Assembly (NCBI GenBank): GCA_031418035.1
Contig: JANOWU010000051.1
Location: forward strand, 20,803 to 84,802
Reading direction: 5' to 3'
Length of the DNA: 64,000 nt
DNA from: Acidimicrobiia bacterium
GTDB lineage: Bacteria > Actinomycetota > Acidimicrobiia > Acidimicrobiales > JANYDT01
The notes below the pieces were generated by a model. That model ran no database searches. It worked only from the letters and a program-made list of their open reading frames with translations, and had not been told where the DNA came from. Each line of letters starts with the position of its first letter. Within the stretch, counting starts at the first letter, position 1. Positions 1-5,153 of this stretch are shown piece by piece. A program made the position numbers and the translations under genes.

Positions 1-735
1 GACGTATGGGTTGCGAACTACAACGCACCCGGTCAAATCGTGATCGCCGGAGATCCCGCCGCCCTCGAGCGAGCAAGCGTCGCGGCGAAGGAATTGGGTG
101 CCAAGCGGGTGATGCCCCTCCCCGTAGGCGGCGCATTCCACACGCCATTCATGGCCCCTGCGCGCGATCGGCTTCGGGAAGCGATTTCGACGGCATCGAT
201 TCACGAACTCGAGATCCCGGTGTTCGCGAACATCGATGCTCGCTCGCATCAAGCAGCAGCGGATTGGCCACCGTTGCTGAGCGCACAGCTCGTGTCACCG
301 GTTCGCTGGCGTCAGACCGTGCAGAACATGGCCGACGCTGGCGTGAACACGCTGATCGAACTCGGACCGGGCAACGTGCTCACCGGACTGGCCAAGCGAA
401 TCGTTCCTGACGTACGCGCACTTAGTATTTCCACTCCCGACGACGTCGACCGACTCGTCGAGGTTCTCAATGGAGGGGCGGCGCGCCCACTGGCCCGGGC
501 CCACGAGGGCGAACATCTCTCGATGACGGTTCGAATGGTGGTCAGTCCCGCAGCTGGCATTTTCTCGCCCCTTGCCGACGTTGTTGCCGGATCCACCGTC
601 AAAGTTGCAGGTCTTCTCGGACACATCGGGGAAACCGAAGTTCGTAGCGGCTTCGCTGGTACCGTCAACGGAATGCTTGCAGTCAGCGGTGAACGGGTGA
701 GCGTCGGCCAACCGATTGCGTGGCTCGATGTCTGA
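1..735 (+). CDS. fabD: Malonyl-CoA:ACP transacylase (FabD), 5' end cut by window edge, with an extra C-terminal biotinyl/lipoyl-like domain
   Basis: Frame 1 is open from nt 1 (DVWVANYNAPGQIVIAGD...) to TGA 733-735. FabD C-terminal-half motifs VGGAFHTPFM, VSPVRWRQTV, IELGPGNVLTGL. First gene of a fabD-fabH-fabG-acpP-fabF array. Confidence 0.9.
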   Translation, partial: DVWVANYNAPGQIVIAGDPAALERASVAAKELGAKRVMPLPVGGAFHTPFMAPARDRLREAISTASIHELEIPVFANIDARSHQAAADWPPLLSAQLVSPVRWRQTVQNMADAGVNTLIELGPGNVLTGLAKRIVPDVRALSISTPDDVDRLVEVLNGGAARPLARAHEGEHLSMTVRMVVSPAAGIFSPLADVVAGSTVKVAGLLGHIGETEVRSGFAGTVNGMLAVSGERVSVGQPIAWLDV

Positions 736-838: not shown

Positions 839-1873
839 ATGAACACGCATTACAGCCCGTCTCGTGGAGGAATAATCACCGGCTGGGGCACGGCATTGCC
901 GGCAACCAAGGTCACGAACGACGATCTTGCGTCGTACCTGGATACCAACGACGAGTGGATCACCGAACGGACCGGGATCAAGACTCGCTACTGGGGCGAC
1001 GAAGGACCGGCCGCTCTTGGCACCCGCGCGGCTCGCGAGGCATTGAAGATGGCGAACTGCGGCCCTGAGGACATCGACCTGTTGATTCTCGCAACGTGCT
1101 CGCCGGAATACATACTCCCCGGCAGTTCCGCGATGGTGCAACACGATCTCGGACTCAAGTGCGGCGCGTTCGACCTCGGCACGGCGTGTTCTGGGTTCAC
1201 CTACAGCGTCGTCACGGCACACGGCTTCTTGAACCTCGGCATGAACCGAATCTTGGTGATCGGCGCCGAACAATTGAGTCGGATCATCGACAAGAACGAT
1301 CGCAACACGGCGATCTTGTTCGGCGACGGGGCGGCTGCCGTAGTGATCGAGGCCTGTGAAGGCGAAGGGCAGCTTCTCGGCTTCGACCTTGGCGTCGACG
1401 GGTCAGCAGTCGAGTTCCTCTACGGCTTCCACGATCAGCCCGTGACCATGGACGGAAAGGAAGTCTTTCGACGCGCGGTTCATGCGATGGTCGACTCATC
1501 GCTCGTCGCGCTGGAAAAGGCGAAGATGACGATGGACGATATCGACTGGGTCATCCCCCACCAGGCCAATCGTCGCATCATCGAAGCAGCGGTCAAGCGC
1601 CTGAAGTGGCCGATGGAACGGACGTCGACGAACGTTGAATTCGTCGGGAACACGAGCGCGGCGTCTATACCGCTCGCCCTCGATGCCGAGCTCACGAAAG
1701 GCAACATCAAGCCCGGTGACAACGTGTTGATGTGTGGTTTCGGTGCCGGCATGACGTGGGCAAGTGCGGTCGTTCGATGGGGAGGTGTCTACCGGGAGGG
1801 CGGACACGGCGCCGCGTTCCACGGGGCGACGACCGACGGGGCGACGGCCGACGAGGCGGGTGCTGCGGGGTGA
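839..1873 (+). CDS. fabH: 3-oxoacyl-ACP synthase III (KAS III)
   Basis: ATG 839 preceded by GGAG. 344 aa with DEWITERTGI, active-site Cys context GTACSGF, HQANRRI, GNTSAASIPLAL, GFGAGMTW. Has a Gly/Ala-rich ~25 aa C-terminal tail. Confidence 0.93.
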   Translation: MNTHYSPSRGGIITGWGTALPATKVTNDDLASYLDTNDEWITERTGIKTRYWGDEGPAALGTRAAREALKMANCGPEDIDLLILATCSPEYILPGSSAMVQHDLGLKCGAFDLGTACSGFTYSVVTAHGFLNLGMNRILVIGAEQLSRIIDKNDRNTAILFGDGAAAVVIEACEGEGQLLGFDLGVDGSAVEFLYGFHDQPVTMDGKEVFRRAVHAMVDSSLVALEKAKMTMDDIDWVIPHQANRRIIEAAVKRLKWPMERTSTNVEFVGNTSAASIPLALDAELTKGNIKPGDNVLMCGFGAGMTWASAVVRWGGVYREGGHGAAFHGATTDGATADEAGAAG

Positions 1874-2574
1874 GCCGCGTAGTTCTGATAACGGGCGGTA
1901 ATCGAGGTATCGGTCTCGCGACGGCACGTTGGTTTGCTGCCCGCGGTGACACGGTCGTCGTGACGTCACGGTCCGGCGAACCCATCGAGGGACTGCACGT
2001 GGTGACGTGCGACGTCACTGACCCGGCCGCGGTCGATGCGGCCTTTCGCGACGTCGAGGCAGCCCACGGACCCGTTGAAGTGGTCGTGGCCAATGCCGGA
2101 ATCACGAAAGACGGCTTGCTCGTCCGGATGAGCGAGGACGCGTTTACGTCCGTCATCGATGCGAACCTCACCGGAGCGTGGCGTGTGGCCAAGCGCGCTG
2201 CGATTTCGATGTTGCGTCAACGCAAGGGTCGGATCATCTTCGTCTCCTCGGTCGTCGCCTACTTCGGGGTCCCGGGACAGGCGAACTATGCGGCCTCCAA
2301 AGCCGGACTCATCGGCATGGCGCGCTCGATGGCCAAGGAGTTGGCGAGCCGATCAATCACGGTCAACGTCGTGGCTCCCGGTGGTGTCGACACCGACATG
2401 GTGGCGTCCCTCCCGGAAGCGCAACAGGCTGGACTTGCGTCGGCGACTCCACTCGGTCGCCTCGCTACGCCCGACGAGGTGGCAGCGGCGATCCATTTCC
2501 TTGCGTCCCCGGACGCGAGCTTCATCACGGGCGTTGTATTGCCCGTCGACGGCGGACTGGCAATGGGTCACTAG
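1870..2574 (+). CDS. fabG: 3-oxoacyl-ACP reductase (SDR family)
   Basis: GTG 1870 overlaps the fabH stop (GTGA at 1870-1873). The longer 1732 start in the ORF track would overlap fabH by 140 nt. Motifs: ITGGNRGIG cofactor motif, NAGI, Y-x3-K in NYAASKAG. Confidence 0.9.
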   Translation: MSRVVLITGGNRGIGLATARWFAARGDTVVVTSRSGEPIEGLHVVTCDVTDPAAVDAAFRDVEAAHGPVEVVVANAGITKDGLLVRMSEDAFTSVIDANLTGAWRVAKRAAISMLRQRKGRIIFVSSVVAYFGVPGQANYAASKAGLIGMARSMAKELASRSITVNVVAPGGVDTDMVASLPEAQQAGLASATPLGRLATPDEVAAAIHFLASPDASFITGVVLPVDGGLAMGH

Positions 2575-2639
2575 GCTTGTGACGCATTCGACGACCATCG
2601 CCGAACATCTGACGTACTCTCATCGCGTTCGAACCGCAT

Positions 2640-2714
2640 CACCTCGAACCGCAGCACCTCGCACCACCTCACCTCGAACCTCAACACCTCGCACCACATC
2701 ACCTCGCACCACAC
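2640..2714 (+). repeat. Five head-to-tail 15-nt repeats, core CACCTCG(A/C)ACC, in the acpP 5' leader
   Basis: Read directly: cacctcgaaccgcag / cacctcgcaccacct / cacctcgaacctcaa / cacctcgcaccacat / cacctcgcaccacac at 2640, 2655, 2670, 2685, 2700. A partial degenerate unit lies upstream (about 2625). The array ends 16 nt before the acpP ATG. Confidence 0.9.
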
Positions 2715-2730
2715 AACAAAGGAACCAGCC

Positions 2731-2976
2731 ATGACCAACGACGAAGCTTTCGCCACTTTCAAAGACGCCGCTGTGGAGGTGCTGTCCGTCGATCCGTCGG
2801 CCGTCGTGCCCGAGGCATCGTTTGCTGACGACCTCGACGCCGACTCACTCGACCTCGTCGAGTTCGTGATGGCCCTCGAAGACAAGTTCGGCGTGGAGAT
2901 TCCCGAGTCTGATCTGGAAGGCGTCAAGACGGTCGGTCAGGCCTTCGATATCGTCCTCGCCAAGCTCGGCAACTAG
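2731..2976 (+). CDS. acpP: Acyl carrier protein
   Basis: 81 aa with phosphopantetheine attachment context [23 protein letters not shown] Shine-Dalgarno-like sequence a few nt upstream of the ATG. Sits between fabG and fabF. Confidence 0.95.
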
Positions 2977-3031: not shown

Positions 3032-4228
3032 ATGACAAACCGCCGATATCCACGTCGAGTCGCGGTCACCGGATTGGGCGTTGTTGCCTATTGCGGAATG
3101 AATGTTGACTCCTTTTGGAACGGACTTCTCGAGTCCGAGCCGGGTGACGTGTCGCGCCGCATCGTTGACTTCGATCCGGCACCCTATTTCGCCGGGCCGA
3201 AAGAAGCGCGTCGCGCCGACCGATTCACGCAGTTAGCACTGGCGGCTGCGCATCAAGCGATCACGGGGGCGGGGGATCTCGGTGGGTATGACCCCGCCCG
3301 AATCGGAACGTTGATCGGCACGGGCGTCGGCGGCTTGGAAACCTTGGAAGAACAGATCGTTCTCCGTCACGAAAAAGGCGAACGTCGGGTATCGCCGTTT
3401 CTGGTCCCGATGATGATGTCGAATGCGGCCGCCGCGTCGGTCTCTATGAAATACGGATACCAAGGGCCGTGCGAGGCCGTCGTCACCGCCTGTGCCGCGG
3501 GGACGCACTCCATCGGGAATGCGGGTCGTTTGATCGCCACCGGTCAATGCGACGTCGTCATCACCGGCGGGTCGGAGTCAGCAATGACCCCGACGGCTAT
3601 GGCCGGCTTCGGCAACATGACCGCATTGTCGACGTCGGGCTGGTCGCGCCCCTTCGACATCGGTCGAGACGGGTTTGTCATGGCGGAGGCGGCGGGTGTT
3701 CTCGTGCTCGAAGAGTGGGACAGGGCCGTCGAACGCGGCGCCTTCATTTGGGCGGAGTTTCTCGGATCGGCATCAACCGCCGACGCCCATCACATCACGG
3801 CGCCCTCCCCCGGCGGAGCAGGCGCAGTGCGCTGCATGGAACTGGCCATTGCCGACGCAGGGCTCTCCGCGAGCGACATCAGGCATGTGAACGCCCACGG
3901 CACATCGACACCGCTGAACGATGCGGCAGAAGCAGAAGCGATCGCGAAGGTCTTTGGTTCGCCGGGACCAATCGTGACTTCCACGAAGGGCGTGACCGGT
4001 CACGCGCTCGGCGCCGCAGGCGCAATCGAAGGCGTTGCGCTGGCACTTGCCATCACCAAAGGAATTGTTCCGCCGACGCGGGGAACATCACGAGACTCCC
4101 TCGACGCCAGCGTCGGATTCGACATCGCGCTCGAGGCTCGGCCTTGGACACCCGGGCCCGCAATCTCGAACAGTTTCGGTTTCGGTGGTCACAACGGCAC
4201 GATCGTCATGGGACCCGCCGACCGCTAG
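3032..4228 (+). CDS. fabF: 3-oxoacyl-ACP synthase II (KAS II)
   Basis: 398 aa. GAGG 5 nt upstream of the ATG. Active-site Cys in VVTACAAGTHS, plus HGTSTPLND, GHALGAAG, NSFGFGGHNG. Confidence 0.93.
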   Translation: MTNRRYPRRVAVTGLGVVAYCGMNVDSFWNGLLESEPGDVSRRIVDFDPAPYFAGPKEARRADRFTQLALAAAHQAITGAGDLGGYDPARIGTLIGTGVGGLETLEEQIVLRHEKGERRVSPFLVPMMMSNAAAASVSMKYGYQGPCEAVVTACAAGTHSIGNAGRLIATGQCDVVITGGSESAMTPTAMAGFGNMTALSTSGWSRPFDIGRDGFVMAEAAGVLVLEEWDRAVERGAFIWAEFLGSASTADAHHITAPSPGGAGAVRCMELAIADAGLSASDIRHVNAHGTSTPLNDAAEAEAIAKVFGSPGPIVTSTKGVTGHALGAAGAIEGVALALAITKGIVPPTRGTSRDSLDASVGFDIALEARPWTPGPAISNSFGFGGHNGTIVMGPADR

Positions 4229-4260: not shown

Positions 4261-4689
4261 CTAGAGGTCGGCAAGCACGAAGAGCAGATCGGCTTCGCAG
4301 GCGAGCTGTCCGCCGACCAGTACACGTCCCGAACCCTTCCCGGCGCGGCCGGAGAGCCGACCCAATTCCACCGACAGCTCCAACGTATCGCCGGGCACAG
4401 CCTGTCGCCGGAATCGCGCGCTGTCGACGCCAGCCAGCATCGGGAGTTTTCCGGCAAATCGTTCATCGGTAAGTACACCTATGGCACCGACTTGCGCCAG
4501 AGATTCGATCATCAACACGCCGGGGAGCGTCGGACGTCCGGGAAAGTGTCCCGCCCAGAACCATTCGTCGCCGGTGAGCTTCCACGTTGCCGAGACCCTC
4601 ACCCCCGGTTCGAGTGCAGTGACCTCGGTGACAAACAGAAAAGGCTCACGATGGGCGAGAACGTCGATGGGTCGGGGCAGCGTGCTCAT
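4261..4689 (-). CDS. fabZ: 3-hydroxyacyl-ACP dehydratase (FabZ/FabA hotdog family)
   Basis: Motifs HREPFLFV, FWAGHFPGRPTLPGVLMIESLAQ. Start chosen at ATG 4689 (MSTLPRPID...), which overlaps the bcp stop as ATGA. The ORF-track start 4755 would overlap bcp by 70 nt. Confidence 0.85.
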   Translation of the reverse strand: MSTLPRPIDVLAHREPFLFVTEVTALEPGVRVSATWKLTGDEWFWAGHFPGRPTLPGVLMIESLAQVGAIGVLTDERFAGKLPMLAGVDSARFRRQAVPGDTLELSVELGRLSGRAGKGSGRVLVGGQLACEADLLFVLADL

Positions 4690-5153
4690 TTCGATCCGCC
4701 CTCGAGTGCTTCGAGCAGGACCTGTGGCGTGTCTTTCGGGCTTACCTTGTACCACGCCCGTTCGATCTTTCCCTTTCCGTCGATCAAGAACGCAGAGCGT
4801 TCAACACCCATGTACTTCTTGCCGTACAGAGACTTCTCCTTCCACACGAAAAATGCCTCAGCCACAACATGGTCGGCATCCGAAAGAAGAGGGAAGCCCA
4901 ACTCATACTTGACGTCGAACTTCTTTTGCTTCGCCGGTAGATCCGGGCTGATTCCGATGATTGCGACATCGTCGACTCGGCCTTCGGCAACGAGATCTCG
5001 GAGCAGACACGACTGCTGCGTACAGCCGGGAGTATCGGCCTTCGGATAGAAATAGACACAGACTCGGCGTCCTCGGAGGGACTTCAGAGTTACCGTGTTT
5101 CCGTCCTGGTCGAGAAGGTTCAGTTCAGGTGCTTTGTCACCGGGTGCCAACAT
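4686..5153 (-). CDS. bcp: Thioredoxin-dependent peroxiredoxin (Bcp type)
   Basis: Start chosen at internal ATG 5153 (MLAPGDKAPELNLLDQDG...). Peroxidatic Cys context FYPKADTPGCTQQSC. Length then about 155 aa, typical for Bcp. Confidence 0.88.
   Translation of the reverse strand: MLAPGDKAPELNLLDQDGNTVTLKSLRGRRVCVYFYPKADTPGCTQQSCLLRDLVAEGRVDDVAIIGISPDLPAKQKKFDVKYELGFPLLSDADHVVAEAFFVWKEKSLYGKKYMGVERSAFLIDGKGKIERAWYKVSPKDTPQVLLEALEGGSK

Follow-up and report, generated by a model that had tools for sequence, protein, structure and literature searches.

The 64,000-nucleotide stretch of DNA analysed here (assembly GCA_031418035.1, contig JANOWU010000051.1, positions 20,803 to 84,802 of the forward strand, from an Acidimicrobiia bacterium), which as a whole we refer to as “the window”, opens inside the gene of FabD, the malonyl-CoA:ACP (acyl carrier protein) transacylase, and continues with the remaining genes of a fab operon. 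The reading frame of fabD continues beyond the enzyme core: after a short, variable linker, it encodes a conserved domain of 76 residues that is predicted to have the fold of the biotinyl domain of the biotin carboxyl carrier protein (BCCP), and in which the lysine that normally receives the prosthetic group is absent. The coordinates of all features of the locus are collected in Table 1.

Frame 1 is a single uninterrupted open reading frame between positions 1 and 735 of the window, which enters from the 5' edge and ends with the TGA at positions 733-735; its translation ends in ...DDVDRLVEVLNGGAARPLARAHEGEHLSMTVRMVVSPAAGIFSPLADVVAGSTVKVAGLLGHIGETEVRSGFAGTVNGMLAVSGERVSVGQPIAWLDV*, identical to the peptide that had been quoted in an earlier note on this DNA. 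The first 157 codons of the window encode the C-terminal part of the FabD core (Pfam Acyl_transf_1); past the segment ...VEVLNGG, the frame reads the short stretch AARPLARAH and then EGEHLSMTVRMVVSPAAGIFSPLADVVAGSTVKVAGLLGHIGETEVRSGFAGTVNGMLAVSGERVSVGQPIAWLDV. The full-length protein is represented by P0006, a FabD fusion of 391 amino acids (aa) that is 100% identical to the translation across the part that is located in the window. The core of P0006 is that of a normal FabD, located in an operon of the order fabD-fabH-fabG-acpP-fabF: the fabD equivalog TIGR00128 is matched with 289.4 bits (cut-off 260.9), the core of the AlphaFold2 (AF2) model has the expected alpha/beta-hydrolase fold with a ferredoxin-like subdomain and superposes on the FabD of E. 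coli (1mla) with a TMt of 0.92, and the catalytic motifs G85-H86-S87-L88-G89-E90 and G191-A192-F193-H194 are invariant among 117 full-length sequences. The match to TIGR00128, however, spans residues 1-284 only; canonical FabDs (E. coli 1mla, M. tuberculosis 2qc3, S. coelicolor 1nm2) end at ~280-320 residues, while the present FabD adds the linker and the 76-residue domain, and the last ~85 residues of P0006 are therefore additional. The solved FabDs are proteins of 281-320 aa, so that the single-module architecture of ~300 aa does not describe the 391 aa of P0006. The earlier note had claimed that the FabD frame reads on past the canonical C-terminus via a short linker, and had not recognised the result as a standard FabD architecture; the first point agrees with the uninterrupted translation and the peptide as quoted, and the second with the end of the TIGR00128 match and the shorter lengths of the solved FabDs.

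Table 1. Features of the fabD fusion locus; positions are those of the window, and residue numbers are those of the full-length protein P0006.
Feature	Position	Strand	Basis or remark
FabD (malonyl-CoA:ACP transacylase) core, C-terminal part	1..471	+	P0006 residues 148-304; Pfam Acyl_transf_1; gene open at the 5' end of the window
Variable inter-domain linker	472..504	+	P0006 residues 305-315; low identity, AF2 pLDDT <50
76-residue BCCP-like barrel-sandwich-hybrid domain (predicted fold) without modifiable lysine	505..732	+	P0006 residues 316-391
β-hairpin tip H-I-G-E, site of the BCCP A/E-M-K-M motif	622..633	+	HMMER and MAFFT alignments, DSSP
TGA stop of the fused gene	733..735	+	Translation
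fabH (KAS III), next operon gene	839..1873	+	Pfam ACP_syn_III, ACP_syn_III_C
fabG (3-oxoacyl-ACP reductase)	1870..2574	+	Pfam adh_short, adh_short_C2, KR; start GTG 1870 inferred from the translation of the open reading frame, overlaps the fabH stop
acpP (acyl carrier protein)	2731..2976	+	Pfam PP-binding
fabF (KAS II)	3032..4228	+	Pfam ketoacyl-synt, Ketoacyl-synt_C
FabZ/FabA-like dehydratase, convergent with the operon	4261..4755	-	Pfam FabA

In a database search with the 244 residues that are encoded in the window, more than 117 homologues were found; they are 371-419 aa long and 59-100% identical to the query over 99-100% of its length, the extension included. The architecture is widespread in Acidimicrobiia, which had escaped the earlier note, as had the existence of a split-gene form. 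At the level of the genomes, a pattern scan over one genome per GTDB species has revealed at least 499 stretches that encode a relative of the domain, and the figures given here for genome loci rest on the best 80 of these. The best 80 stretches derive from Acidimicrobiia, i.e. Ilumatobacteraceae, Microthrix, Iamiaceae, Ferrithrix and Poriferisocius, and include three closed chromosomes and a few metagenome-assembled genomes that are filed under other labels. In 80/80 loci, the closed chromosomes OZ239146, OZ257157 and OZ242341 among them, the domain shares its stop-to-stop frame with the FabD core and follows the core profile at a distance of 5-13 residues; the stop codon or frameshift between core and extension, by which the earlier note had proposed that its reading could fail, occurs in none of them. 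In an exhaustive profile search over 1.84 billion representative sequences, 632 clusters (50% identity) reach E<=1e-3, and 305 of them also reach E<=1e-10. The mean pairwise identity among the 117 full-length sequences is 71% in the core, 64% in the extension and 32% in the linker; since the identity of the extension is close to that of the core, the extension is constrained nearly as tightly as the enzyme, i.e. the appended module is under strong purifying constraint. The FabD of Acidimicrobiia is generally a two-module protein, which consists of a canonical core, a flexible linker and a domain with the predicted BCCP fold.

The AF2 model of the full-length protein, obtained with the alignment of 117 sequences, has a pLDDT (predicted local distance difference test) of 91.9 and consists of a canonical core and a confident, all-β C-terminal domain, connected by a linker that is disordered (residues 307-320 at pLDDT <50). 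The pLDDT of the domain is 91-96 inside the full-length model and 94.1 when the domain is modelled alone, with an alignment of 25 sequences. The domain-only model contains six β-strands; the strands 37-41 and 44-47, as assigned by DSSP, flank the turn 42-43 of a hairpin, which is formed by G42-E43 of the domain. Comparison of the full-length model with the Protein Data Bank (PDB) by Foldseek has returned FabD cores only, and the structural comparison of the domain rests on the domain-only model. With this model, ranks 1-11 are all occupied by BCCP biotinyl domains, with template-modelling (TM) scores of 0.73-0.85, a root-mean-square deviation (rmsd) of 1.3-3.1 Å and a probability of 1.00: among them are those of P. 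horikoshii (TMq 0.80, TMt 0.85, rmsd 1.4 Å), E. coli, Arabidopsis BCCP1 and the alpha chain of M. smegmatis MCC (9yx0_A). The BCCP structures 5gua, 2d5d and 1bdo are among the top matches (TM 0.75-0.85), and Arabidopsis BCCP1 (9a87) has 28% identity to the domain at a TM of 0.75. Lipoyl domains are absent from the top 50 Foldseek matches in the PDB, and the first membrane-fusion protein occurs only at rank 12. The sequence profile of the domain, searched against the PDB sequences, also has the BCCP of P. horikoshii as its best match (E=0.003).

In the comparison with the Pfam model PF00364 that the earlier note had proposed, the domain of the window scores 18.2-18.6 bits, which is below the gathering score of 22.1, and only positions 42-71 of the profile, its C-terminal half, are aligned. 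PF00364 is matched at E<0.01 in 13/25 fused relatives, its threshold is passed by P0183, another member of the family (24.8 bits, positions 4-71 of 73), and many standalone members carry precomputed PF00364 matches; given that the window domain itself remains below the gathering score, its biotinyl-type assignment is carried by the fold comparison and by the members of the family that pass the threshold. Two NCBIfam models, NF005457 (PRK07051, “acetyl-CoA carboxylase”, 80 aa) and TIGR03309 (YqeB), are matched far below their thresholds, and membership in either has been rejected. The structural models predict that the extension folds as a barrel-sandwich hybrid of the biotinyl-domain type, with the flattened β-barrel of ~70-80 residues that is characteristic of the class.

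The resemblance to the BCCP biotinyl domains extends to the size and to the strands: the two have the same fold and length (TM 0.75-0.85, rmsd 1.3-2.1 Å, 68-75 residues), the strand motifs V-S-P-x-x-G-x-F and G-x-V-x-x-h-x-V-x-x-G-E-x-V-x-x-G-Q-P are recognisable in the domain, and the “thumb” insertion of the E. coli type is missing, as it is in archaeal BCCP. The difference is located at the tip of the hairpin, where H-I-G-E (window 622-633) aligns with A-M-K-M of the P. horikoshii BCCP in both the HMMER and the MAFFT alignment, so that there is no role for the domain as a carboxyl carrier. Among 116 diverse members of the family, the frequency of lysine is 0 at the hairpin columns 40-44 and does not exceed 3% at any column; the columns of the hairpin tip are occupied by T/H/R, V/I, G/A/S, D/E/G and T/V/A. 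Biotin and lipoate ligases require a lysine; because there is none at the hairpin or at any conserved column, biotinylation or lipoylation by the known lysine-specific ligases is not expected, and the domain, as far as its sequence can tell, should be unable to carry biotin or lipoate. Both the BCCP/lipoyl-like fold and the replacement of the BCCP motif, by H-I-G-E-T-E in its reading, with no lysine left to modify, had been proposed in the earlier note, and both agree with the models and alignments presented here.

The domain is also distinguished from BCCP by its own family-specific invariant residues and, in the case of the window sequence, by a score below the PF00364 threshold. R10, R64 and W73 are invariant in the 116 sequences, and G2, E3, G18, F20, G35, G52, E63 and Q69 are nearly invariant; the family signature reads GE-x-L-x3-(E)R-h-V-V-S-P-x-x-G-x-F ... 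V-R-S-x-F-x-G ... G-E-R-V ... Q-P-I-A-W-L, or, in its short form across the 116 members, GE-x-L-x3-ER ... VRSPF-x-G ... GERV ... QP-x-AWL. Finally, a BCCP would be fused to, or encoded with, carboxylase components, whereas the present domain is joined to FabD and not to biotin carboxylase (BC) or to the N-terminal region of AccB. The domain is not a BCCP: it belongs to the biotinyl/lipoyl fold class without the lysine that defines the function of that class.

Domains of this class that lack the lysine are known from other proteins. The membrane-fusion proteins (HlyD/BesA), the C-terminal domains of succinylglutamate desuccinylase/aspartoacylase and YqeB also contain lysine-less domains of the “single hybrid motif” type, and weak matches connect them with the present family (HlyD_3 in 5/25 members; TIGR03309; BesA at Foldseek rank 12 and 3fmc at rank 30); they rank, however, below BCCP, and the present domain has neither the α-hairpin insertion nor the membrane or periplasmic context. 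A conceptual parallel is found in plants, where BADC (biotin attachment domain-containing) proteins, i.e. BCCP homologues without the biotinylation site, inhibit heteromeric ACCase by taking the place of BCCP (bioRxiv 10.1101/634550; PMC12706156). Like the present domain, BADC is a BCCP-type domain minus its biotinylation site, placed at the entry of fatty-acid synthesis and acting by contacts only (10.1101/634550; PMC12706156). The BADCs, however, are separate proteins of the plastid, where they become part of the BC-BCCP subcomplex, whereas the present domain belongs to bacteria and either forms part of FabD, the consumer of malonyl-CoA, or is encoded beside it; the likeness rests on the shared fold and the loss of the lysine, and binding to a carboxylase is putative in the present case.

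The domain also occurs as a separate protein. Standalone relatives of 81-108 aa are abundant in Acidimicrobiia according to the profile search, and in Acidimicrobiia other than those with the fusion, a standalone gene of 84-89 residues is located between fabD and fabH: on every contig that is long enough to judge (L085, L086-88 and L089-91), the small gene lies between a fabD of 304-307 aa and fabH. The junction of fabD and the standalone gene has the form TGA-GA-ATG, or consists of a 4-nucleotide (nt) overlap (2-925 and 922-1191 in L085). Comparison of the fused and the standalone family by hhalign identifies them as homologous, with a probability of 100% and E=1.5e-39. The hairpin of the standalone form is four residues longer than that of the fused form and is still without a lysine (L085 922-1191; L086 6001-6261; L089 6001-6255); it reads, for example, VEGPGTATPVRSP, in comparison with GHIGETEVRS of the fused form, and its length equals that of a true BCCP hairpin, with a glycine at the position of the lysine. 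The standalone proteins are named “biotin/lipoyl-containing protein” or “hypothetical protein” at the NCBI, and “biotin carboxyl carrier protein” at JGI. In L089-91, which represent one split-form lineage of Acidimicrobiia, a carboxyltransferase of 466 aa (Pfam Carboxyl_trans and ACCA) is encoded directly after fabF (L089 9604-11004; L090 6796-8196; L091 5428-6828), and the carboxyltransferase gene is followed by another short-chain dehydrogenase gene.

Two further members, P0183 (L082 866-1612) and P0199 (L083 906-1634), carry the lysine-less, BCCP-like domain behind a cyclic-nucleotide-binding domain at the N-terminus; their genes are located on short contigs, where each is followed by another gene for a cyclic-nucleotide-binding protein. 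These fusions suggest that the domain is able to serve in signalling, as an output module. The domain is a portable module, with its main home at the junction of fabD and fabH.

Two apparent variants have not been counted. P0004, located in L001, had the appearance of a standalone gene and has been rejected, as the fabD upstream of it is riddled with frameshifts in a long-read contig; P0248, a fusion to an AMP-binding ligase in L092, comes from the same error-prone long-read sample (ERZ25039504). In the contigs of this sample (L001 5046-6240; L092 6001-7044), which are 345-495 kb long, frameshifts are obvious in fabD and in the gene of the AMP-binding ligase. The copy of the domain in L092 is located just upstream of the ligase and has been called fused, a call that is unreliable; its neighbourhood is one of lipid metabolism, with genes for acyl-CoA dehydrogenase, thiolase, a short-chain dehydrogenase/reductase, a FabA-like protein and ACPS.

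As regards the function of the domain, FabD consumes malonyl-CoA, which is the product of acyl-CoA carboxylase, and the natural docking partners of BCCP domains are the biotin carboxylase and the carboxyltransferase of acyl-CoA carboxylases. Because the structural kinship of the domain is specific to BCCP, because FabD uses the product of the carboxylase and because BADC provides a precedent, we prefer, tentatively, a model where the domain is a lysine-less mimic of BCCP that may dock FabD to the acyl-CoA carboxylase, or regulate the carboxylase, by analogy with BADC; docking to the carboxylase, or regulation by it, had also been suggested in the earlier note. We regard this model as possible, and as the leading candidate. 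Since it would bear no prosthetic group, the domain would act purely through protein-protein contacts, by occupying the site of the carboxylase that normally receives the biotinyl domain, either on the biotin carboxylase or on the carboxyltransferase. The outcome would be that FabD is kept beside the source of its malonyl-CoA, or that the carboxylase is throttled according to the occupancy of FabD. The wider proposal, where the module would be the bacterial counterpart of BADC, linking FabD to the carboxylase for the channelling of malonyl-CoA or for feedback sensing, and would be redeployable for second-messenger control by fusion to cyclic-nucleotide-binding domains, is somewhat less probable.

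The carboxyltransferase gene that follows fabF in L089-91 offers weak support for a link with the carboxylase; several other observations weigh against it. No carboxylase has been found near the fusion in the 64-kb window, either by tblastn with the carboxyltransferase of L089 or by a six-frame scan for biotinylation motifs, and among the 91 loci it is only in L089-91 that a carboxyltransferase is part of the fab cluster; as the hits are confined to these loci, synteny lends little support to the involvement of the carboxylase. The invariant elements of the family (GE-x-L, E9-R10, R47, E63-R64 and Q-P-x-A-W) are not hallmarks of BCCP, and the interaction surface may have been repurposed. The pattern of fusion and fission points first to FabD or FabH as the partners of the domain, and the fusions with cyclic-nucleotide-binding domains, away from the fab genes, indicate that the module is not tied to FabD.

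The main rival model is that the domain is an adaptor inside the fatty-acid synthesis machinery, which would bind the FabD core, FabH or ACP and have no role at the carboxylase, its BCCP-like fold being a matter of ancestry only; such an adaptor would stabilise or oligomerise FabD, shape the docking site of ACP, or pass malonyl-ACP to FabH. Whether fused or split, the domain is located strictly beside fabD and before fabH, and a Rosetta-stone argument favours the fusion partner as the likeliest interactor; the N-terminal segment GE-x-L-x3-ER and the invariant R10, R64 and W73 are specific to the family and not BCCP-like, and the window is devoid of carboxylase genes. On the other side, the disordered linker of the full-length AF2 model gives no sign of fixed docking, the domain also accompanies cyclic-nucleotide-binding domains far from the fab genes, and the FabDs of all other bacteria function without such a module; the net charge of the domain, as read from its sequence, is negative, which argues against a simple electrostatic recruitment of the acidic ACP. 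We consider an adaptor of this kind somewhat unlikely, and rank it only slightly below docking to the carboxylase.

The domain might alternatively serve as a handle for a signalling protein whose usual targets are BCCP-type domains, PII being one candidate; FabD would then be controlled by nitrogen, energy or a second messenger. Binding of PII proteins to BCCP, and also to the lysine-less BADC, has been reported (PMC12706156), and the paralogues that join the domain to cyclic-nucleotide-binding domains suggest its use as an output or effector element in signalling; a gene for PII or for another regulator is, however, absent from the conserved neighbourhood, the idea is one of analogy only, and we judge such a handle to be improbable. 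It is far less probable still that the domain is a cryptic carrier, with a modification site that is not the canonical lysine and that bears a cofactor or an acyl group: the carrier-domain fold, including the hairpin, is well preserved, but no column exceeds 3% lysine, the tip is H/T-V/I-G-D/E, the established enzymology of the biotin and lipoate ligases calls for a lysine, and no ligase gene is located nearby. The least tenable explanation, i.e. that the extension is an artefact of a lost stop codon or a frameshift in the assembly, which merged two genes, or of non-coding read-through, could appeal to the split-gene form of other lineages and to the frameshifted fabD of the long-read metagenome contig L001, but is effectively refuted by the recurrence of the same in-frame fusion in 80/80 independent genomes, closed chromosomes included, by the hundreds of independent protein clusters and by the strong conservation of the domain at the amino-acid level.

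Scans of Pfam-A and NCBIfam have revealed no model that is specific for the domain family, and in full-text literature searches on FabD with biotinyl/lipoyl domains and on fatty-acid synthesis in Acidimicrobiia, we have found no description of a lysine-less domain on FabD. Precedents exist both for the fold and for the loss of the lysine; what appears to be undescribed is the dedicated association with FabD, in many genomes of Acidimicrobiia. A carrier-like module that is catalytically inert, strongly conserved and widespread, and that is tied to FabD by fusion or as its neighbour, suggests an additional level of organisation or control at the hand-over from the carboxylase to FabD, and to our knowledge, no such layer is known in model bacteria. 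Should the module bind the carboxylase, it would stand as a bacterial analogue of BADC regulation in plants, the first of its kind, and would provide a natural physical coupling between the production and the use of malonyl-CoA, of relevance to lipid and polyketide engineering. There is also a gain for annotation, as the members of the family are currently labelled plainly as “ACP S-malonyltransferase” or, misleadingly, as “biotin carboxyl carrier protein”. The Acidimicrobiia include abundant bacteria of marine, freshwater and wastewater environments, such as Ilumatobacter and Microthrix, the latter being noted for its lipid metabolism.

Regarding the surrounding operon, the genes that are located 5' of fabD in L002, a close relative, are unrelated to fatty-acid synthesis (MalQ and a DnaJ-domain protein), from which it follows that fabD is probably the first gene of the fab operon. 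The intergenic region between fabG and acpP contains, at window positions 2629-2713, a tandem repeat of 15 nt with the consensus TCGAACCACATCACC, in 5.7 copies with 82% matches; it can also be read as a unit of 30 nt in 2.7 copies (2629-2710), and it ends 18 nt before the start of acpP. This repeat could be a regulatory element or an element of the 5' untranslated region. Lastly, FabH carries a Gly/Ala-rich tail of ~30 residues (GGVYREGGHGAAFHGATTDGATADEAGAAG; window 1784-1873) beyond the end of its match to ACP_syn_III_C at residue 314 of 344, and the last codons of this tail overlap the probable start of fabG.

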